This document shows, piece after piece, positions 2,708-58,777 of a stretch of DNA of 64,000 bases; positions within the stretch are counted from its first letter, which is position 1, and each line of letters starts with the position of its first letter. The translations under genes were made by a program, and so were the position numbers. The stretch is from Octopus vulgaris (Eukaryota): contig OX597816.1 of NCBI GenBank assembly GCA_951406725.2, positions 147,870,001 through 147,934,000 on the forward strand, in the 5' to 3' direction. The notes beneath the pieces were generated by a model. That model made no database searches, was not told the DNA's origin, and saw only the letters and a list, made by a program, of their open reading frames with translations.

Positions 2708-3092
2708 GGCGCAGGAGTGGCTGTGTGGTAAGTAGCTTGCTTACCAACCACATGGTTCCGAGTTCAGTCCCACTGCGTGGCACCTTGGGCAAGTGTTTTC
2801 TACTATGGCCTCGGGCCGACCAAATCCTTGTGAGTAGATTTGGTAGACGGAAACTGAAAGAAGTCCGTCGTATATATGTATATATATATGTGTGTGTGTA
2901 TATGTTTGTGTGTCTGTGCTTGTCACTCCGACATCGCTTGGCAACCGATGCTGGTGTGTTCACGTCCCCGTAACTTAACGGTTCGGCAATACGAGACCGA
3001 TAGAATAAGTACTAGGCTTACAAAGAATAAGTCCTGGGGTCGATTTTTCCCTACTAAAGGCGGTGCTCCAGCATGAATATAACAAGTAAAAG
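2708..3092 (+). mobile_element. tRNA-derived SINE family A
   Basis: Head ggcgcaggagtggctgtgtgg (A box), agttcagtccc (B box), CORE-like ccttgggcaagtg, internal (TA)/(TG) tract, and aacaagtaaaaga tail. Confidence 0.9.
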
Positions 3093-9027: not shown

Positions 9028-9360
9028 TTTACCCTGCGCGCGTAATTGAAAGCAAGGTATTGTAGTCGTTCGTTTTTCTGTGTGTGTTTGCAAAATTACT
9101 GGAAAACGGCTGAACAGATTTTCACCAATTTTTTTTTTTTTTTTTGACAGAAATACTCATTGGGTCAGTGCCTCGAACTTATTCAATTTTGGTTCGGTGA
9201 ATCAAAACGGTTTTTTCTTTGTTACATATGCATAAACGATAGGCAGAAAATATAACACTTGATGTCATTTTGTTGAAATATGAAATCGTCTGAGATTAAA
9301 TTAAATTTTATTTTATCCTTTTTTGCGCGCAGTGTATGCATCGCTACCCTGACCCTTTTG
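9028..9360 (+). mobile_element. Helentron-associated non-autonomous element (HINE/DINE-1-like), copy 1
   Basis: 5' tttaccctgcgcgc with inverted subterminal gcgcgcagtgta at 9325-9336, a 5' partial inverted repeat (gcaaggta), a short TG tract, a DINE-1-like core aaaacggctgaacagattttcaccaattt, and T-rich ends. Confidence 0.7.
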
Positions 9361-9367
9361 TTTTTCA

Positions 9368-9672
9368 TTACCCTGCGCGCGTAAAGGAGAGCAAGGTATT
9401 ATAGTCGTTCGTTTTAGTCTGTTTGTGTTTGCAAAATTACTCACCTAATTTGGCAGAATTACGTATTGGGGGAGTGGCTCGAGCTCATTAAAATTTGGTT
9501 CGGTGAATCAAAATGTATTTTTTTCTTTGTTACATATGCTTAAAGGATAAGTAGGGAAATAACACTTGATGTCATTTTGTTGAAATATGAAATTGTCTGA
9601 GATTATTTATTTAGATTATATCTTATCCCTGTGTATGCGCAAAGTTTGCATCGCTACTCCGATACCTTTTTT
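9368..9672 (+). mobile_element. HINE/DINE-1-like element, tandem copy 2
   Basis: Head-to-tail diverged duplicate of 9028-9360 with an internal deletion. Confidence 0.7.
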
Positions 9673-10239
9673 CATTTCCTTCTGTGGTTCTTACTCATAA
9701 TCTTTGTATTATTATTTGTTCTCCTGGTCATTAAGGATTTTCCTTACGGTTCCTATTAGATGGGGTTTAGTGTTACTGTTTCTGTTATCAGCTCATCATT
9801 CTGTATTAAAGGTTTATTAGATTCTTAAATTTAATCGCATCAAGACGGAAGTTTCAATAAGTGCTCGTCATATTAAATTAAGAAATTAGCGGCATTGCAA
9901 TTATAGATATTATCTGTTAATTACATTATAGCGAACTTGCGACACACCAACACGCACTCACGCGCGCACACACAGAGACGCACATGCACATGCACACACA
10001 CACACTTACACACACACACACACAAACATTTACAGACGCACACAGGTACACAGACACACACACGTATTAACTGTATCTGGTTATGGAAGTAAGAAAGAAG
10101 GAATATAAGGTAGGTGATAGATACCAAAACACGGAAAAATGAAGGTGGATGACCATTGGATATATCCTACGTATAGAGGAATAGCTGCAAAGGGAGCAAA
10201 CGATATGTAGACAGGTATGTAGTTAGTTCTATCTGTTTG

Positions 10240-15250: not shown

Positions 15251-15264
15251 AATTATTATTATTA

Positions 15265-15590
15265 TTTTTTTTTTCTTTCAAATTTGCTTCCATTTCTTGC
15301 CGAGTGTCTTCCCGACTCCTAGGGCAAAGAAACTCATAGTATACATTGGTAGGCCATTAAACCAAACTCAATAGTTCGTTCATTAAAAAATTTTTTTTTA
15401 TTTTTAAGTTAAATTAAAATACATGAGCAGCAACAGTTCTCACATCGACAATGCTCTTCTCAATACGTGTGATGTACCAGTTAAGGCAATCTTTTGCACT
15501 TCTTGCAGGGATGGTAAGCCAGGGATCATTCTCATATAATTTTCGGTTCCCTTCTTGATCATTCCTAGTGCTCCTACGATCACTGGTATT
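15265..15590 (-). mobile_element. 3' end of an R4/Dong-type LINE in (TAA)n
   Basis: IPVIVGALGMIKKGTENYMRMIPGLPSLQEVQKIALTGTSHVLRRALSM* is an RLE-LINE C-terminus. Near-identical copy at 31070-31415. Confidence 0.85.
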
Positions 15591-15613
15591 ATTTTTATTA
15601 TTAATATTGTAAT

Positions 15614-15652
<39 letters not shown>

Positions 15653-15786
15653 GATTATGATTATATACATATATGTATTTGTTTATTTATTTATTTATGT
15701 ACTTATGTATGTATATATGTGTGTATGTATGTATGTATGTATGTATGTATGTATGTATGTATGTATGTATGTATGTATGTATGTAT

Positions 15787-18119: not shown

Positions 18120-18410
18120 AGGATTTTGTAGAAGGAAACTGAAAGAATCCCGTCGTATATATGTATATATGTATATATGTGTGTGTGTATGTATGTATGT
18201 GTGTCTGTGTTTGCCCCCCCCCCCCGCCCAACATCGCTTGACAACCGATGCTGGTGTGTTTACGCCCCCGTAAATTAGAGGTTCGGCAAAAGAGACCGAT
18301 GTAGTAAGTACTAGGCTTAGAAAGAATAAGTCCTGGGGTCGATTTGCTCGACTAAAGGCGGTGCTCCCACATGGCCAAAGTCAAATGACTGAAACAAGTA
18401 AAAGAGTAAA
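18120..18410 (+). mobile_element. SINE family A, 5'-truncated
   Basis: Runs from ggaaactgaaagaa through gactgaaacaagtaaaagag, colinear with 23400-23690. Confidence 0.88.
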
Positions 18411-19179
18411 AGTGACTAAATGCTGCAGCCTCTGGCTTTTCGACGACGCACGTTAAGAATATGGCATAGATAAATCTGTGAGTATGTGTGTTTATACGAA
18501 ACACCTTTTCAGAATATTGCAAATATCCTGAAATATTCTCCCGATATAGCATATGTCTGTGTGGCCTCAGTAAACAACCAGGAAGAAATGCGCTAGTGCC
18601 AGAAAGACGATGCCATAAAATTTTTGAGCCTCCTCTTATTTTATTCTATTATCAATAATTCCCACTTTCCTAAACAGCGCATCCAGTGTGCAAACATCTG
18701 TTGTAGGATTCTATGAAATATGCAGCGAACAATTCTGGACTGTTATTCGTAGGTTAGACCGTATAGGGCTCATATTGTACCCTAAGAACAACCATTTCTT
18801 CTTCCCTGGATTCATTCAAGACGTGATCATTAATAAAATCAATCATCCAACAAGAAATGTTAGCAAAATACCCTGACATAGGCTCAACCGTCTAAAGAAA
18901 ATAGAATATATAGATTAGCGAAATTATTGCTACTCTAGGTAAATATGTAGTCATGACAGTCCCTGGTGAAGCAACATTGATGATAAGTCTGTTCAAACAT
19001 TTATAAACTGAAGTTGATCAACAATGATTACTACCTGCCCTATTGATTCCATGTGTTAACAGACTTAAACCGCTCTTCAACATAATATAATTATTGTCTA
19101 ACTCGACCTTTCGGGTCCCTGACGCGTAACAGCTGTAGCCAACTACAAATGCTACTATACCATTCTCACAATATATATT

Positions 19180-19370: not shown

Positions 19371-21346
19371 TTATGTGTATATATATATATATATTGATAG
19401 AAGAAAAATATCTACTTGACTTCATGACTGGGTGCTAAGTCTAATTCCAAACTTGTATACGTGGACAATCCAGGAGATAATTTATATAATTTCGTACGTA
19501 CCTGAGTAATTTTGTAAACATTTTGCACTCCGTCCATCTATCTACTATTAAACATTCAGAGCGTAGATCTAATGTCAATCCAGTCCAACTCAGTACTAAT
19601 TATATGGAACATTTTCAGTAACGTTTCCAGACGACGGAAACAGTTCCCCACAGACACAACTGTGGTATTAATTTTTGCAGGGCTACAAGAACACAGACCC
19701 ACCTTCTGGCTCCAGAAGGATTGAGTTTGAAATCTCGAACTAGATTTTCTAGAATGAACCTAATAAAAGCCTGGACCAAGGCAAAACCTCCTGCTCTTCC
19801 GGTAAGAAGAGAAGTTCATGTAGCTCGATAATCCTGCTCTCGTTCATGGAGGATATATTATGCAGAATATTCTAACGTTGTCTAGTAAGTGTCCTTGCTC
19901 CCACCTTTATTCTATATGTATTTGCAATTGTTTATATAATAACGTCTCACATTAGGCCATACTGATAATGTTTTGTTTTTGTTCTTGGTTTTCTTTTATA
20001 TATAGGAACCAGGCCATGAATCTTACATTTAAGGATGCGTCACTACTCCAATGATACTAATTATATCTATGCCAGAAAGATGAAAGGCAATACAAGATCA
20101 GTATGGATTTGAATGCAGAACACAACACGGTATAATTAAGTAACGAAAGGTATTTTGCCCCGACGCTCTGCTAATTGAAAAAATAAATTGAAATATCTTT
20201 TAAAAACAACAGTATAATTATACAAAATGTAACACACCATGCTCATCAATCATTCATGTATTTTGAATAGAACGTTATGAAATATTTGTATCTCACCTAA
20301 CAATGGTGTTATAACATATTCTAATTGAACAAGAATTTTATTGACACTGCGCAATTCAATACACAAAATCAACGAATAACAAAATGAGAAAGTTGGCGAT
20401 AGCGTCATATAAACCTTTCGTGATTGTGTTGACTAAATATTTCTTTAACAACAAGACTCAATTCTCTCTGATTCGCTGCATGTTGTCTCGTTATTGTAGC
20501 AATTTTGTATGACGTACGCGCTGCATTGGCGTGAGAAACAATGTTTTATTTGGCTGATTTGTAATATTTTGGGATTTTTAACAAAAGGAATGTATTTCAA
20601 TCCAGGCCAATGTAATTCATAATACGTTTCATGTTTTGTTTCAGGCGTGTATTATTTTTCCTTGAATTTACTGAATACTGATACCAGGTACTCAAACAGA
20701 ATATTTGATTATATTTTCAATGATCTGAATTATTATTATTATTGAGGTGTTGTGTGTGATCCCTAGAAATTTAAGCCTTTGTTTATCAGAATGTTGTTTT
20801 AGTTAAGTATGATATCATGACGTTCTCTAATAATGTATGTTTAATTATAAATTTGTTAAGCATTGCATTGCCTTTGTAACAATACATTGACGTTAATTTA
20901 TAAATGAAATTTCCTTTCCAATTTCTATGCTGCAGAGTTTGAGACACATCAGATGCATTAGAATGCATTTTCTTGGGAATATGATAACGAGTATTCATTC
21001 AATCCCGTTTATATACATGCTAAAGATAATATCTTGTAATTTGGAAGGGATCTAGACTTCGAGGTGGGACTACAATGATAAGAATCGAAACCAGTCAAAA
21101 CCAGGCGTCATGATCGAGGATTATAGATGGGTTATCTATGCATTTATACTTTCGGTTCTATAGGAGATGTTTACCGATGTATAGCTGTTATCACCTTCGT
21201 TGTGTAGTCTACGCAAGCACTGTTTCTAAAAACCAGTGTGCTAAGTAGAGCTGTCATTTTATTCACTTCGAGAGCGATCGTCCATTTTTATTTTCTTCTG
21301 ACAGACTGCTTTAAGCATTATATTCTTCAACGGGCTTATGTGTATA

Positions 21347-21412
<66 letters not shown>

Positions 21413-21473
21413 AACACGCATCAACATATTTATATACATATATATGTATTATATATATATATATATATATATG

Positions 21474-22464
21474 TTATAATAAAGCGTTAATTGCAACAAG
21501 TTGCTCAAAACCACATACCGAAAATATTAGAAATGGCAGCCAAATAGATTACCATTTCTCCTACTAGTAAAAAAGTCTCCATAAACAATCAGAATTTGCA
21601 ACCCGTATATGGAAAAGAGAAAGAAAATAACGAAATCACAGTCTGTTTGGATTAATTGTAGACGAAATTCCGTTTCTGGATTAGAACCAAAGGTTCATTT
21701 CCTTGTCAATATAATATTTCCTATAAATCTAGAAATGCTAGGGGGAAAACGACTTACCCACCATACCGGCTCGATCAGGCGACACCGAACGATATGATGG
21801 TCTACCAGCATCCCTACATTTATATACAGACAGGCGAAATCGTATCTCCCTCCAAAATTACCACGTGAGTTGCAAAAACATTATCAACGAAACGAAGTTT
21901 CGCAGATTTATTGTATGGGAGTAATAGCGCACAATATACAAAAATGGTGAAATATAATTAATTTAATAAAATTAGTGGTAATTTTGTAGGGAGATACGAT
22001 TTCGCCTGTCTGTATATAAATGTAGGGATGCTGGTAGACCATCATATCGTTCGGTGTCGCCTGATCGAGCCGGTATGGTGGATAAGTCTTTTTTTCCCCT
22101 AGCATTTCTAGATTTATAGGAAATATTATATTGACAAGGAAATGAACCTCTGGTTCTAATCCAGAAACTGAATTTCGTCTATAATTAATCCAAACAGACT
22201 GTGATTTCATTATTTTCTTTCTCTTTGCCATATACGGGTTGCAAATTCTGATGGTTTGTGGAGACTTTTTTACTAGTAGGAGAAATGGTAACCTATTTGG
22301 CTGCCATTTCTAATATTTTCGGTATGTGGTTTTGAGCAACTTGTTGCAATTAACGCTTTTTTATAATTAATATAATCCTTACTAAATATTGTCTTTTCCA
22401 TACCGATAAAACTACTAGGTGAAATTTATTAATTTTATTAAATTAATTATATTTCACCCTTTTT

Positions 22465-22470
<6 letters not shown>
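21474..22470. mobile_element. Fold-back insertion of a ~565-bp hammerhead-bearing monomer between (TA)n tracts
   Basis: Arms 21474-21864 and 21975-22366 are inverted copies. 22430-22458 is the reverse complement of 21946-21974. Confidence 0.85.
22125..22185 (+). ncRNA. Type-I minimal hammerhead ribozyme-like motif (U3-A8 core variant); mirror copy at 21655-21715 on the minus strand
   Basis: attata-UUGACAA-gga..gaacc/ggttc..tcc-a-GAAA-c(t/g)gaatttc-GUC-tataat. Stems I, II and III and the GUC triplet are all present. Confidence 0.6.
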
Positions 22471-22495
<25 letters not shown>

Positions 22496-22599
22496 CCTCT
22501 CTTCTTCCCCTCCCCTTCTCCCCCCTCTTCTCCCCCTCCCCCTCTTCTTCTCACTACACCACACGACTTTACACATCACATCATATATGATGTGCCATA

Positions 22600-22930
22600 C
22601 TAATACATACACCAACTAATACATACTAATACGTACTAATACATACTAATACATACACCAACCCTATACATACACACGTCCAGACCCCTCATACGCACTT
22701 ATACTCTCTCATACACACACACACACACTTATACATACTAATACGTACTAATACATACTAATACATACTAATACATACACCAACCCCATACATACGCCTG
22801 TCCAGACCTATCCCACGCACTAATACTCTCTCATACACACACACACACACACCCTTATACATACTAATACATACTAATACATACACCAACCCTATACATA
22901 CACACGTCCAGACCCCTCCTACGCACTAAT
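22600..22930. repeat. Minisatellite-like tandem repeat (~110-130-bp units built on tactaataca)
   Basis: catacaccaaccctatacatacacacgtccagaccc recurs three times. Confidence 0.85.
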
Positions 22931-23234
22931 AGGTGGTCATTCAACCCTATTATCAACCCTATTATCTCCCCTTATTTCGCTCTCGCGTCTCATGTTTGAT
23001 CTTTGACTTCTGGCCGAAATCAGATCGCCATGTTGATTCGTTAGTTACTGCACGCATTTTTTTTCTCTCCTTCTTTCTGTGTTTTTTTCTCTCTGTGTAT
23101 CTTTCTGTTGAAGAGCGTAGGCTCGAAACGTTAAAGACTTGTTTTATTTATATTTCCTGAGCGCCATACTAATACAATTGTTTGTTTGTTTTCCACCTGC
23201 CTTCGTCTTTTGTCTATTTTCATAAAGCTTCCCG

Positions 23235-23236
<2 letters not shown>
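22930..23236 (+). mobile_element. Penelope-like terminal fragment with a minimal hammerhead motif (23100-23137)
   Basis: tcttt-CUGUUGA-a-gagc gtag gctc-GAAAC-GUU-aaaga. Ends in (TA)n. Confidence 0.6.
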
Positions 23237-23279
<43 letters not shown>

Positions 23280-23281
<2 letters not shown>

Positions 23282-23690
23282 CGCAGGAGTGGCTGTTTGG
23301 TAAGTAGCTTGCTAACCAACCACATGGTTCCGGGTTCAGTCCCACTGCGTGGCATCTTGGGCAAGTGTCTTCTGCTATAGCCCCGGGCCGACCAATGCCT
23401 TGTGAGTGGATTTGGTAGACGGAAACTGAAAGAAGCCTGTCGTATATATGTATATATATATGTATGTGTGTGTGTGTTTGTGTGTGTTTGTCCCCCTAGC
23501 ATTGATTGACAACCGATGCTGGTGTGTTTACGTCCCCGTAACTTAGCGGTTCGGCAAAAGACACCGATAGAATAAGTACTGGGCTTACAAAGAATAAGTC
23601 CCGGGGTCGATTTGCTCGACTAAAGGCGGTGCTCCAGCATGGCCGCAGTCAACTGACTGAAACAAGTAAAAAGAGTAAAAAGAGAAAGAA
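23280..23690 (+). mobile_element. tRNA-derived SINE family A, full length
   Basis: A box tggctgtttgg, B box ggttcagtccc, CORE-like segment, internal microsatellite, and (gtaaaaga) tail. Confidence 0.92.
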
Positions 23691-23713
23691 AGAGTATATA
23701 GATAGATAGATAA

Positions 23714-23796
<83 letters not shown>

Positions 23797-23870
23797 GATA
23801 CTCACTCACAAACACATATCCACTTATTTATATACATACTTGCATAAATACATATATATATATATATATA

Positions 23871-24809
23871 TAGTAAAGAAAAAATAAGATGGCTAGCAGC
23901 AGGCTGTTTCGCCTCATACCGAAGGAATTAGAAATGGCAATCAAAGACCGTTTTTCCATTTTCTATAAGTGGAGATTCCAAAAAACGAAGGCCCTTACGG
24001 CTCACATACACAAAACCGGAGTGGCAAATATACGAAATCAGTCACTTACCGTTAATAGCGAACACGTGTTTCTGGATCGCAAACATAGAAAAAATTAGTT
24101 TGAATTCCGTCATCGGCGCTATATTCGATAGCTTTACCAAATGCCACTAGCCCTCACTTCTGACCCAGCGACATCAGATAGTGGGGGGAAGAGCGCAGAT
24201 GTTAAAACTAAGTAGCGACTGGGATAGTAAATTTTCCCTCCAAAATTCTGCCATGCGCGCTTTCTGGGTAATCGTAATGGAATGAGGAATCCACATGGTA
24301 ATGCAATAAAAATGGTAAATAATTTTCCTGTGGTTTTTCGTGTAACCAACAATTATTTACCGGTAAATTTCGGTATGTAAATACGACAAATTAATTGTCA
24401 GGACCTTTGTAAGGTTCAGTATATAGTAAAGAAAAAATAAGATGGCTAGCAGCAGGCTGTTTCGCCTCATACCGAAGGAATTAGAAATGGCAGTCAAAGA
24501 CCGTTTTTCCATTTTCTATAAGTGGAGATTCCAAAAACGAAGGCCCTTACGGCTCACCCGTAAGGGCCTTCGTTTTTGGAATCTCCACTTATAGAAAATG
24601 GAAAAACGGTCTTTGACTGCCATTTCTAATTCCTTCGGTATGAGTAGAAACAGCCTGCTGCTAGCCATCTTATTTTTTCTTTACTATATACTGAACCTTA
24701 CAAAGGTCCTGACAATTAATTTGTCGTATTTACATACCGAAATTTACCGGTAAATAATTGTTGGTTACACGAAAAACCACAGGAAAATTATTTACCATTT
24801 TTATTGCAT
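23871..24809. mobile_element. Tandem plus hairpin insertion of a 553-bp hammerhead-bearing monomer
   Basis: 23871 repeats at 24424. Palindrome arms 24301-24552 and 24558-24809 enclose a 5-nt loop. The host flank is duplicated on both sides. Confidence 0.88.
24055..24122 (-). ncRNA. Type-I minimal hammerhead ribozyme-like motif (CCGAUGA core variant)
   Basis: atagcg-CCGAUGA-c-gga..caaac/gtttg..tcc-a-GAAA-cacgt-GUU-cgctat. Stem I is 6 bp and stem III is palindromic. Confidence 0.55.
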
Positions 24810-24815
24810 ATAGAT

Positions 24816-24906
<91 letters not shown>

Positions 24907-27900
24907 TAGATATAGATATATAGATATATAGATATATACTCACTCACAAACACATATCCACTTATATATATACATACTTGCATAAATACATAGATATAGC
25001 AACTGAAATGAAATATTCTTTCCGCCAGTTCACGCAACGCTATTTTTGTAATACATACAAAGATAAGTACATACACTAATGCATACATGTATACATACAC
25101 GCACGCACACACAAACGCACACACGCCGCGCACGCACTTAATACAGACATACGTATATTAATACTTACATACATACTGATACACATACATACATACATAC
25201 ATATATACTTACATACATACATAATACATATAGACGTACAAACAGACATATTTGTGGATACATGTATTATGAGTGAGAGATGAAGATTTGTGCTAGAAAG
25301 ATACATTGGTGAACTCAAGGATTAGAGTCTCTTGGATATTTTAGCGTAACTTGTCTCGTAATCTTAAGAAATAGAGTTCCATCTGTCAACATTCTGACTA
25401 CAAATCTGAATTAATCTATCGCGTTTAACTTCAAATCATCTGGGTGCGGCGAAATACATGTCAAAACTATAGTGTTTTCTGTTTGATTGACTACATTCCT
25501 CACTATATTTTGTATCAAAGGAAGCTATCAGTTTTATCGACCTTGCAAAGCATAGGAAATAATAACATCAACAGTTGACATTTGAAATCTCACAACCGGG
25601 TGATGCTTTAAAGTATTTAGCCTAACTGCTCTTTCAGCCAGGAACTATGGCGCTATTTTTATCGAATATTTGAAATGTAATCCACTATCCGTTGATATTA
25701 ATTCAAATTTCAGCATAGATATTATATTTCATTTTCGATTCACGTTGCTTTAATAGTTTATTACCCTTTCGAACTCACAATACAAATATTCTTTATTTTA
25801 TATTTTATTCTTGGAATCCACTTTTAATTAACTTTATTAATTAAATATTACGGTGTTATAAAATACATTTTTATTCTTGTTATTCATTTTTCATTTTTTA
25901 CTGGTCCTGTTCTTTTCCTTTATTTCATGATGTAATTTGCTTCATTGATAATTTGCATTATTGATTAGCCTTACTATTGTAAGGTCTTTCAATTTTCGAA
26001 ATTTCAAATACTGTTTGCTTTTTTCACCTTTGTGTTTGCATTTTTCTTGCAAAGGTTACTTTTATTGTATAAGAGTTGGCAGCAACTGAGTGCAAAACTG
26101 TGAACTGCTAAATCTAGTGCAGTTTCAGATCTAGGTTTAGTTCATTTTATGTTACACGTTCTCCTAGTATTCCTGGATGAGACAGGAGAACAAGTAATTA
26201 CCATTTTGCCCACTTCAAACACATCGTCATTGTTGTTAAACAAAAATGCAAAATGTAAAGTAAAAGGAACATTTAAAGTTTACTTTTTTCAACGGCCGAA
26301 TGTTATATTTCTTACAGTGGAGAAAAAAGAATTAAAGAAAATCCGTCTGAGCTGATTTCAAATTATTTGATTATTTCAAGCACAATTTTATCAATATAAT
26401 TTATTTTTTTATCTTTATTTTACACTTTATATTTATTTTAATTTTATTTTGTTTATTTATTTGTTTTTTTTAGGAAAGGCTTGAGCAGAACAACTTTCTC
26501 AATGCTTAAAATATCCGGGTTTAAGGTCCAAATAATGAAATTCATTTTTTGTTTCTGCTATATATACCGTGCAAATTTTATATTTTACTAATTTGTCATG
26601 CCTCTAGCTGGTATCATTCGATGTAACGAAAATACAATCTAGTCAAGCCCAAATATATGCGTTGATACATATACAAAGCTCATTAGTATAACACAGTTAA
26701 ACAATACGCGTGCTATATGTCAAGTGATTACAATCTCCATATTATTCCACCATTCATACTTAAAGATATTTATGGGAATTGTAGTTGCTTGACTTGATAA
26801 TGTGTTGAAATAGGAAACTGATCTTCGGTTAGGTTGACGTAAAGTGTCATCTAAAATTCTTTTGTTCATGACAGGAAAATGGGTGATTTGGTTTATCTAA
26901 CTATAAACACTGCATCTCATTGATATTTTGTTCTATGCAGCTTAGTAGCCATGGATTATTATTAATTTGTATGCTTGTAGCATTGTTTCTTTCTAAGAAC
27001 AAGCATTAAACATGTTAGAAATATTTGCACTTATGTCTTAGTCTGACTAATTCTATGATAATAATGAGTTTATTAGAAATATTCTTTCACCAATCGAACT
27101 ATTAGTAATCATATTCTAATTACATCTAAGGTTAATAAATAAATAAATAAATAAATAACAGGCATGTACATGATTAGATTCTATCAACTAGATGACTTTC
27201 CAGTTAGCGTGTGATCTCTCTTTGATAGTGAAAGGAGAGCGAATGGAGAAATAAAGTGTGCATGCGTGCGTATGCATGTGTGTGTGTACGTGTGTGTGCG
27301 TGCGTGTGTGTGCGTGCTTGTGTGTGTATGTGTGTGCGTGTGAAAGAGTGAGAGAGAGTAAAGATGTGTGCCTGTTGGAGTCTATGTGCGGACATGTTTT
27401 AGCGTGTCCGGAAAACACGGAAAACAGGAAATATGGCAGGGAAAGACAGTAATGAAAGAGCAAGTCAGTTTAATTGGAACTGTCACATTATAATAATCCA
27501 CTTTCTTATTCTCATTTAAACCATTCTGAAGAATATAAATTGGTTACATTCGCGTAGCACCATGCGTCACATTTATGTATCAGTATCAAAATATAATATA
27601 CAGGAATACATTTATATAGGTGTCAAACGATGGGTATGAGTGTGTACGTATGTTTGTGTCTTTATCTATGCGTTCATGTTTCTACGAAAGTGAAATGAAG
27701 ATCTAAAAATAGGAAAAACCATGTGATAAATAGTCAAAAATATGTTTCACGCGTTTTTAAAAACAAAAACATCAAAAGAAATAGACATTCTGTGTGTAGA
27801 CAAACTTGACATTCAATTCATAACAGCTCACATGGAGATATAGACACAGGCACATGATTTCTAACATATATCTGATGGTTCGGTTTCAAAAAAGTTTAGG

Positions 27901-30622: not shown

Positions 30623-31613
<991 letters not shown>

Positions 31614-46389: not shown

Positions 46390-46770
46390 GCGCAGGAGTG
46401 GCTGTGTAGTAAGTAGCTTGCTTATCAGCGACATGGTTCCGGGTTCAGTCCCACTGCGTGGCACCCAGGACAAGTGTCTGTAGCCTCAGGCCGACCAATG
46501 CCTTGTGAGTGGATCTGGTAGACGGAAACTGAAAGAAGGACGTCGTAAATATGTGTGTGTACATGTGTGTGTATGTGTTTGTGTGCGTGTATGTTTGTGT
46601 GCCTGTGTTTGTCCCCCAACATCGCTTGACAACCGATGCCGGTGTGTTTACGTCCCCTGTAACAGCGGTTCGACAAAACAAGCCAATAGAATAAATACTA
46701 CGCTTACAAAAAATAAGTCCTGGTGTCGATTTGTTCGAATAAAGGCGGTGCTCCAGCATGACTGAAACAA

Positions 46771-46771
<1 letters not shown>
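46390..46771 (+). mobile_element. tRNA-derived SINE family A
   Basis: Colinear with 23280-23690. Confidence 0.9.
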
Positions 46772-46828
<57 letters not shown>

Positions 46829-53809: not shown

Positions 53810-54210
53810 CTTTTATTCTTGTATATGTTTGTTATTTGACTGCAACCATGCTGGAGCACTACTTTTAGTCGAACAAATCGACCCCAGGACTTATTGTTTG
53901 TATGCATAGTACTTATTCTATCTGTCGCTTTTGCCGAATCGGTAGCTAACGGAGAGATAAACACCGCAACATCGCCTGCCGAGCGATGGTAGGAGGACAG
54001 ACAGACACACAAACACACATATACACACACACACACACACACGTGTATATATATATATATATATGTATAACGGGCTTCTTTCAGTTTCCGTCTACCAAGT
54101 CTTTGGTCGCTTGAAGCTATAGTAGAAGACACTTGCCTAAGGTGCCACGAAATGGGATTGAACCCGGAACCATGTGGTTGGTACGCACGCTACTTACCAC
54201 ACACCCACTC
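53810..54210 (-). mobile_element. tRNA-derived SINE family A
   Basis: The reverse complement is colinear with the family-A copies. B box ggttcaatccc. Confidence 0.88.

Positions 54211-55109: not shown

Positions 55110-58777
<3,668 letters not shown>

Follow-up and report, generated by a model that had tools for sequence, protein, structure and literature searches.

What kind of element leaves a copy that runs forward, inverts, and then reads back across its own repeat junction? We asked this of two elements, A (21474–22473) and B (23871–24809), located in a 64,000-nt stretch of the Octopus vulgaris genome (GenBank assembly GCA_951406725.2, contig OX597816.1, forward-strand positions 147,870,001 to 147,934,000), which we call the window and whose first letter is position 1. 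TA-rich repeats abut both elements, and each consists of two arms in opposite orientations:

21474 to 21974, minus strand: left arm of A, monomer positions 1–501, with start site 1 adjoining host (TA)n
21975 to 22473, plus strand: right (inverted) arm of A, running from monomer position 391 to 1, across the junction, then from 564 to 461, and terminating at start site 2 (the tail end) by (TA)n
23871 to 24557, minus strand: left arm of B, a full 553-nt monomer plus positions 1–135 of a second, with start site 1 adjoining (TA)n
24558 to 24809, plus strand: right (inverted) arm of B, running from 130 to 1, across the junction, then from 553 to 431, and terminating at start site 2

We conclude, with a probability of roughly 0.8, that A and B are non-autonomous Penelope-like elements (PLEs) of the non-LTR (long terminal repeat) retrozyme type, carrying a variant hammerhead fold. 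Their RNA sense is, we infer, the minus strand.

An initial annotation of the window had described A and B as non-coding monomers of ~564 and 553 nt that barely align but have a common layout, with a motif ~40–45 bp from a TATA junction. The 553-nt period of B was recovered in the window (it is ~549 nt in B's other tandem copies), but the 564-nt monomer of A is a composite of its two arms, and intact genomic A monomers are 554–561 nt long. The monomers have a low GC content (35–40%), and neither element contains an ATG-initiated open reading frame (ORF) longer than 107 amino acids. The motif CATACCGA lies at 21514 in A and 23915 in B, 40 and 44 nt from the (TA)n junction, and an inverted copy of it lies 33–50 nt beyond the junction on the opposite side, where the annotation had also placed one. 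By BLAST, a single 34-nt block around CATACCGA (E ~1e-4) is the only similarity between A and B in the window. However, when a monomer of A is aligned globally with one of B, the score is 252, compared to 165 ± 11 in 60 shuffles, and intermediate families bridge the two along their length, so we regard A and B as homologous.

Both elements are dispersed, as the annotation had expected. A search of the 2.8-Gb assembly gave 1,074 and 1,439 first-look candidates per element, and 40 candidates from each yielded 146 and 76 scored matches. The motif common to A and B has 686 exact matches in the assembly, and a related terminal motif has 4,595 (control 0 in each case); these are counts of motifs and not of copies. 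Several further subfamilies with units of ~530–565 nt and the same closed layout were present among the fetched loci. A and B are members of a dispersed radiation of ~530–565-nt non-coding repeats. Named homologues in Argonauta hians point to an octopod as the probable host.

To describe insertion anatomy we used 25 B and 28 A loci, dropping same-place duplicates; these are top-scoring matches, so long copies are over-represented. All 25 B loci and 26 of the 28 A loci (51/53) have (TA)n on at least one side. The outer start ends fall at one of two fixed sites in 38 of 43 cases for B and 36 of 41 for A (74/84 together): start site 1 is monomer position 1, and start site 2 is 100–125 nt further out. 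The remaining ends are scattered at variable points. The monomer junction is crossed at 23/25 B and 22/28 A loci. When we tabulated tandem and inverted arrangements, as the annotation had recommended, we found two or more full units at 4/25 B loci and 1/28 A loci, and inverted arms at 18/25 B and 13/28 A loci. Because the inverted arms have fixed outer ends at 31 of 53 independent loci, it is unlikely that they are assembly chimeras, which the annotation had raised as an objection. Divergence between the arms of a B locus is 0.9%, and between its tandem units 0.75%, as compared to 3.5% between loci; for A, it is 4–5% within a locus and ~7% between loci. Therefore, both arms were copied from one sequence variant in one event.

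The forward/inverted layout crossing the junction had been annotated exactly, but it is not a simple fold-back. We rejected simple self-priming by a folded cDNA, because only 2 of the 31 junctions between inverted arms are near-symmetric (the inner ends are unequal in the other 29). Element A in the window did not come from a single folding-back cDNA, since its right arm carries monomer positions 502–564, which are absent from its left arm. The inverted form is more readily explained by two cDNAs that were primed on opposite strands and converged, and this accounts for all the cases. The inner ends overlap by 1–7 nt at 16 of the 31 inverted loci, although some of the short overlaps are chance extensions of BLAST matches.

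B, unlike most of the 53 loci, is flanked by a long direct repeat:

23683 to 23860, unstranded: left copy of a 178-nt direct repeat, 92% identical to 24822–24998
24822 to 24998, unstranded: right copy, pairing with 23683–23860

This repeat is either an unusually long target duplication or a local duplication. Long target duplication is not a trait of the family, because among the 53 loci we found one clear case (B in the window) and one other that is mostly TA.

This anatomy matches the behaviour of PLEs (PMC11167929; PMC8557442; PMC3846280; here and below, statements about published work refer to the available parts of each source). Reconstitution of a PLE in vitro showed cutting and extension of both strands, with two internal reverse transcriptase (RT) start sites generating a tail (PMC11167929). 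Partial tandems, an inverted truncated copy, a tail, a bias to (TA)n and non-autonomous multicopy units are all described for PLEs (PMC8557442). In A and B we found variable 5' truncation with partial tandems, an inverted truncated copy joined at its 5' side, an optional tail from two starts, and a (TA)n target–a set of features found also in endonuclease-positive (EN+) PLEs and in non-autonomous Chlamys units such as MRC1, which have AT-rich or (TA)n targets and a hammerhead in a terminal repeat (PMC8557442; PMC3846280; PMC11167929). Unlike these, A and B have no ORF. The proposal that A and B are non-autonomous sequences inserted into microsatellites in PLE fashion was thus supported.

Each start site is associated with a candidate RNA structure:

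22318 to 22407, plus strand: terminal helix of A in the RNA sense, 22318–22326 pairing with 22399–22407 and enclosing start site 1 at 22366/22367
22419 to 22458, plus strand: tail hairpin of A, ~15 nt before start site 2
24369 to 24476, minus strand: terminal helix of B, 24468–24476 pairing with 24369–24377 around the monomer junction; the right arm has a second copy (24634–24741)

The helix is formed by CATACCGA and its inverted copy. In a set of 15 sequences, one per motif variant (15 of 17 groups), its 9 bp are paired in 134 of 135 cells; substitutions change G-C to A-U in 4 cells and to G-U, on the hammerhead strand, in 4 cells. In single-sequence folds of four families, one hairpin lies 5' of the helix, the loop that the helix closes contains start site 1, and another hairpin precedes start site 2 by 10–16 nt. 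By anchored search, the last of these is retained with a changed sequence in 10 of the 15 rows. RNAalifold recovered the 9-bp helix alone, because MAFFT misaligned the hairpins. We infer that this terminal domain binds the RT and sets the two starts.

The mechanism that we consider probable is one in which minus-strand RNA is bound by a PLE protein through the terminal domain, both strands of a (TA)n target are nicked, and two cDNAs converge. The PLE protein, with its RT and GIY-YIG domains, would recognise the 9-bp helix around start site 1 and the hairpin before start site 2; terminal repeats of PLEs (pseudo-LTRs, pLTRs) suffice in trans (PMC3846280). It would cut both strands of the target, and each nick would prime one cDNA at either start site, with short UA-rich base pairing to the target as an aid. 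Both cDNAs would halt at variable points and be joined, often through the 1–7-nt overlap, giving the inverted form. The template would exceed one unit in length and would usually have an intact hammerhead site: either an uncut multimer transcript or a re-ligated circle. The annotation had taken the junction crossing to imply a circular or concatemeric template; the crossing is real, but an uncut linear multimer accounts for it equally well as a circle.

The hammerhead is on the strand opposite the terminal motif, where it had been annotated at a distance of ~140 bp; the predicted cut is 146 nt from the motif in both elements:

21655 to 21715, minus strand: type I hammerhead fold in the left arm of A, with a U3-A8 core, nothing at 10.1, A at 11.1, a GUC triplet and one stem I mismatch; predicted cut 21661/21660
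22125 to 22185, plus strand: type I hammerhead fold in the right arm of A, with a 6-bp stem I and the core of the left arm; predicted cut after 22179
24055 to 24122, minus strand: type I hammerhead fold in B, with C3-G8, C at position 4, C.A at 10.1.11.1, a palindromic loop III, GUU and a 6-bp stem I; predicted cut 24061/24060

In B copies the order is stem I, CCGAUGA or CUGAUGA, C, a long helix II, A, GAAAC, a palindromic loop, and GUU or GUC; in A it is UUGACAA, helix II, A, GAAAC and GUC. The covariation that the annotation had called for is present. Stem I positions pair at a frequency of 0.795, compared to 0.545 ± 0.041 in 2,000 shuffles of partners among 22 distinct stems (a test that is inflated by relatedness). 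Positions 3 and 8 are C-G in 31 rows, U-A in 24, U-G in 2 and C-A in 1 (58 rows; 3 of 61 did not parse). The triplet is GUH in 57 of the 58 rows, and an NUH triplet and GAAA box are kept across families that are only 55–60% identical. The type I fold of A and B is real, with covariation in stem I and at 3/8.

The core of this fold is not canonical. Of the features of a canonical type I hammerhead (Rfam RF00163; PMC3088659), it has stem I, the 3-8 pair, G12-A13-A14, A15.1-U16.1 and H17, but not a paired 10.1-11.1: there is A at 11.1 in 30/30 B and 29/32 A monomers found by BLAST. Position 4 is U in 30/32 A monomers, and C in B of the window and 24/30 B monomers. None of the 30 B monomers has both CUGAUGA and GUC. 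Genome-wide, a core pattern including the A has 1,298 matches (control 21) and one with another base in its place has 83 (control 45). The pattern without an insert has 95, as against 94 in a control that is poor because the pattern is nearly its own mirror image; many of these 95 rows belong to a different repeat family, whose core is canonical (CUGAUGA-G...C-GAAAC) and whose helix II is long. Nine of the 83 other-base rows form a sister subfamily with a canonical G10.1-C11.1; A.C is found in many of the rest. Of two canonical sisters, one matches the Rfam model Hammerhead_1 over the full length at 15.9 bits (E 0.29), below the gathering score, and its stem I is 6 bp long. Comparison with this sister subfamily, which retains the canonical pair, identifies the 'extra A' as position 11.1, so that G10.1-C11.1 has been lost from A and B.

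The minimal hammerheads of PLEs resemble those of A and B in their long helix II, short palindromic helix III, U3-A8 covariation and opposite-strand motif pairs 100–700 bp apart (PMC4209133), but they keep G10.1-C11.1 and have one extra nucleotide 5' of it, whereas in A and B an A separates helix II from G12 and faces C, A or nothing. We found no report of A at 11.1 in the available literature, although the supplementary alignments of PMC4209133, or a 2017 paper on dimeric PLE hammerheads, may contain it. Working ribozymes with U4C, or with a natural U.U mismatch at the base of helix II, are reported (PMC3088659; PMC7229834). The hammerhead of A and B is predicted to be slow, or to depend on a dimer or a protein.

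We searched for an autonomous partner that shares the termini of A and B, as had been suggested. The genome contains several EN+ PLE families. A young one (P0001; L102–L121, for example L104 1467–6394) has a 781-amino acid ORF that is intact in many copies, with RVT_1 and GIY-YIG domains; it ends in (TA)n and has inverted arms. By eye, there is a hammerhead-like motif with a paired helix II base ~70 nt from the end of this element. A variant-hammerhead match (L135) led to a decayed family with upstream RT-thumb and GIY-YIG segments, whose relatives are proteins of 700–806 amino acids, several with PF26215 and one named GIY-YIG endonuclease. We provisionally call this clade Nematis-like. The hammerhead of the decayed PLE is on the ORF strand and has A at 11.1 in 25 of 27 rows (in the other 2 it is deleted; 2 rows are duplicates), mostly with C opposite. 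The family has two start sites ~140 nt apart (27/29 pieces), TA-rich flanks and two-arm inversions. In copies of it (L162–L186), RT and endonuclease are separated by a long insert rich in Asn and Thr, comparable to the N-rich inserts in Penelope families of rotifers (PMC3846280). Judged by its sequence, the decayed PLE is a relative of A and B in design and not a proven mover.

Another young PLE family, 5.2 kb long and similar in protein type to the decayed PLE, has a fragment of the superfamily's termini within its 3' untranslated region. We treat this fragment as a passenger, because the best 40 copies, a sample biased to long copies, run at least 1 kb past it; it is probably a nested insertion. 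The fragment is two-armed (L218 1041–1275; L219 503–738), lies in a microsatellite-rich region and has spread with the family to at least 40 places.

Several of our results weigh against assigning A and B to the PLEs. Among the 3' regions of four families we found no autonomous PLE with termini of the A/B type: three have no useful similarity, including the 781-amino acid PLE, in whose 3' region the A/B terminal motifs were not found, and the 806-amino acid family, with no match to the termini in its 3' 1.9 kb; the 3' region of the fourth has the internal passenger fragment only. The search for shared termini thus returned the core variant and the anatomy, in a decayed PLE with RT and GIY-YIG segments, but no terminal match. 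That decayed PLE has no terminal sequence in common with A or B, and its copies are ~20% diverged, so it is too old to have moved the young B copies. Pfam gives no RVT_1 match on the second PLE type. The tail of A and B is 100–125 nt long, instead of the 30–40 nt described for PLEs. The 9-bp helix has one compensatory position only, and 27 of 500 shuffles reach its score. Circular folds of two B monomers on the hammerhead strand have modest z-scores (-1.7 and -1.8; 12 shuffles each). An Rfam search of positions 20000–26000, with E up to 10, gave no hammerhead, only sub-threshold hairpin and microsatellite matches, and there was no Rfam hammerhead in a B copy with CUGAUGA (L022). The annotated hammerhead stands as a fold but not as a canonical core. 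The bias of the 53 loci to long copies counts on the same side.

A narrower form of the PLE reading, to which we give somewhat less than an even chance, is the classical retrozyme cycle, in which the variant hammerhead would cut efficiently as a dimer, ~550-nt circles would be ligated, and a PLE RT would roll round them. Full-unit arrays reach 3 units in B, with within-array divergence below 1%, and are longer still (more than 3) in a related family; the palindromic loop III is compatible with cleavage as a dimer (PMC4209133), and circular folds of the A, C and B2 monomers on the hammerhead strand have z-scores of -4.5 to -8.3. There is also a weak hint in the variable ends within 70 nt of the predicted cut, 8 of 37 being at -4 to +6 as compared to 2.9 expected, with a window chosen post hoc and full-length ends omitted. 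However, G10.1-C11.1 is missing, position 4 is C in most B monomers, and CUGAUGA and GUC do not occur together in B. The main substrate of the PLE reconstituted in vitro is uncut RNA (PMC11167929), and 8 of 9 predicted Xenopus retrozymes failed to cleave (bioRxiv 10.64898/2026.07.22.740005). Of 24 listed runs, all of them assembled contigs, four were compared with the elements. Contigs from three of these, which we guessed to be RNA, cover parts of B; the only one to cross the junction starts in host (TA)n and so looks like a genomic insertion, and these contigs have no bearing either way on expression or circles.

We think it less likely than not that the hammerhead is a dead relic, retained only because it binds protein or helps folding, in an RNA that is never cut. 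This explanation fits the loss of the conserved 10.1-11.1 pair across many families and the position of 54 of the 112 variable ends, which are past the predicted cut. Conversely, the 3/8 covariation and the retention of the GAAA box and NUH triplet across such divergent families fit continued selection on the catalytic fold, and active ribozymes with natural mismatches at 10.1-11.1 and with U4C are known (PMC3088659; PMC7229834).

We consider it quite improbable that the units, without amplification of their own, were left behind as solo or tandem pseudo-LTRs when copies of an unseen autonomous PLE were truncated. PLE insertions are mostly 5'-truncated and do form pLTR tandems (PMC8557442), and our search covered the 3' regions of four autonomous families. 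But A/B monomers are head to tail with no ORF between units, many subfamilies keep the closed layout of 530–565 nt, and, a few unresolved flanks aside, none of the 53 loci runs into family-specific sequence seen at other loci. A DNA-level element (of Helitron or recombinase type) or a satellite, with the inverted motif as a DNA-binding site, would account for the 9-bp inverted repeat flanking the junction and for the tandem arrays, but we regard it as close to untenable: one end is variable and two starts are fixed, the one-sided changes that preserve pairing in the helix are four G-U on the hammerhead strand as against one A-C, and an RT-encoding element has the same anatomy.

Returning to A and B as non-autonomous PLEs, we can offer one more speculative idea, which we think unlikely as it stands. 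The hammerhead with A at 11.1 may be a gated ribozyme, inactive alone, that dimer formation or the PLE protein switches on and that has been under selection both in an autonomous PLE lineage and in the parasites of that lineage. Its products would be ~550-nt circles carrying a compact, portable RNA domain that, by itself, could direct two-strand, microsatellite-specific insertion from two start sites.

A and B resemble the animal non-LTR retrozymes (PMC7229834; bioRxiv 10.64898/2026.07.22.740005), which are likewise non-coding units with type I hammerheads, low in GC, occurring as dispersed monomers and short tandems in genomes with autonomous PLEs. At 549–564 nt they fall within the 51–972 bp range of the preprint, but outside the ~150–450 bp of the 2020 definition (PMC7229834); they exceed the 170–400-nt circles seen by northern blot. 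They also differ in lacking G10.1-C11.1, and in their strict (TA)n target, two fixed starts and frequent inverted arms, features that are not reported in the available text of PMC7229834 or the preprint. The preprint already puts forward non-LTR retrozymes as non-autonomous PLE sequences. The initial annotation had called the family a candidate new one, and we found no description of the A/B families or of their core variant in the literature available to us. However, because non-LTR retrozymes have been described as non-autonomous PLEs (PMC7229834; bioRxiv 10.64898/2026.07.22.740005; PMC8557442), we view A and B as a variant within a described class. In an Octopus repeat annotation of 2026, 31 Penelope-like families are listed as recently active, and ribozymes are unmentioned in the main text (PMC13282606); repeat libraries may therefore already contain the A/B sequences, labelled differently.

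Two questions about PLEs are open (PMC8557442; PMC11167929): by what route their inverted and tailed insertions arise, and whether cleavage by their hammerheads is required. The A/B radiation provides, in one genome, thousands of short, young insertions with starts defined to a single base, a candidate domain for RT binding that covaries, and cores that form a natural series (G-C, A.C, A.A or C.A, and a bulged A). Because defined starts, candidate domain and core series coexist, both questions are directly testable. The variant escapes standard descriptors and Rfam, which suggests that counts of retrozymes are likely to be underestimates. A defined RNA end that targets TA microsatellites could be of use in RT-based gene insertion.

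The window also contains other repeats. Between A and B there is a tandem repeat of three units of 106–122 nt (22596–22945) and, adjoining (TA)n at 23280–23690, a ~400-nt dispersed repeat that is found again at 2709–3088, 18121–18411, 46390–46773 and 53847–54210 and that is presumably a tRNA-derived SINE (short interspersed element). Two copies of a 430-nt repeat, 90% identical, lie within (ATT)n microsatellites at 15252–15664 and 31058–31485, and a head-to-tail pair of ~340-nt units, 74% identical, is at 9029–9679. On the minus strand at 55328–56899, a 524-amino acid open frame with RT-like motifs, which had no tblastn match to the three PLE proteins tried, is probably a fragment of a LINE (long interspersed element).

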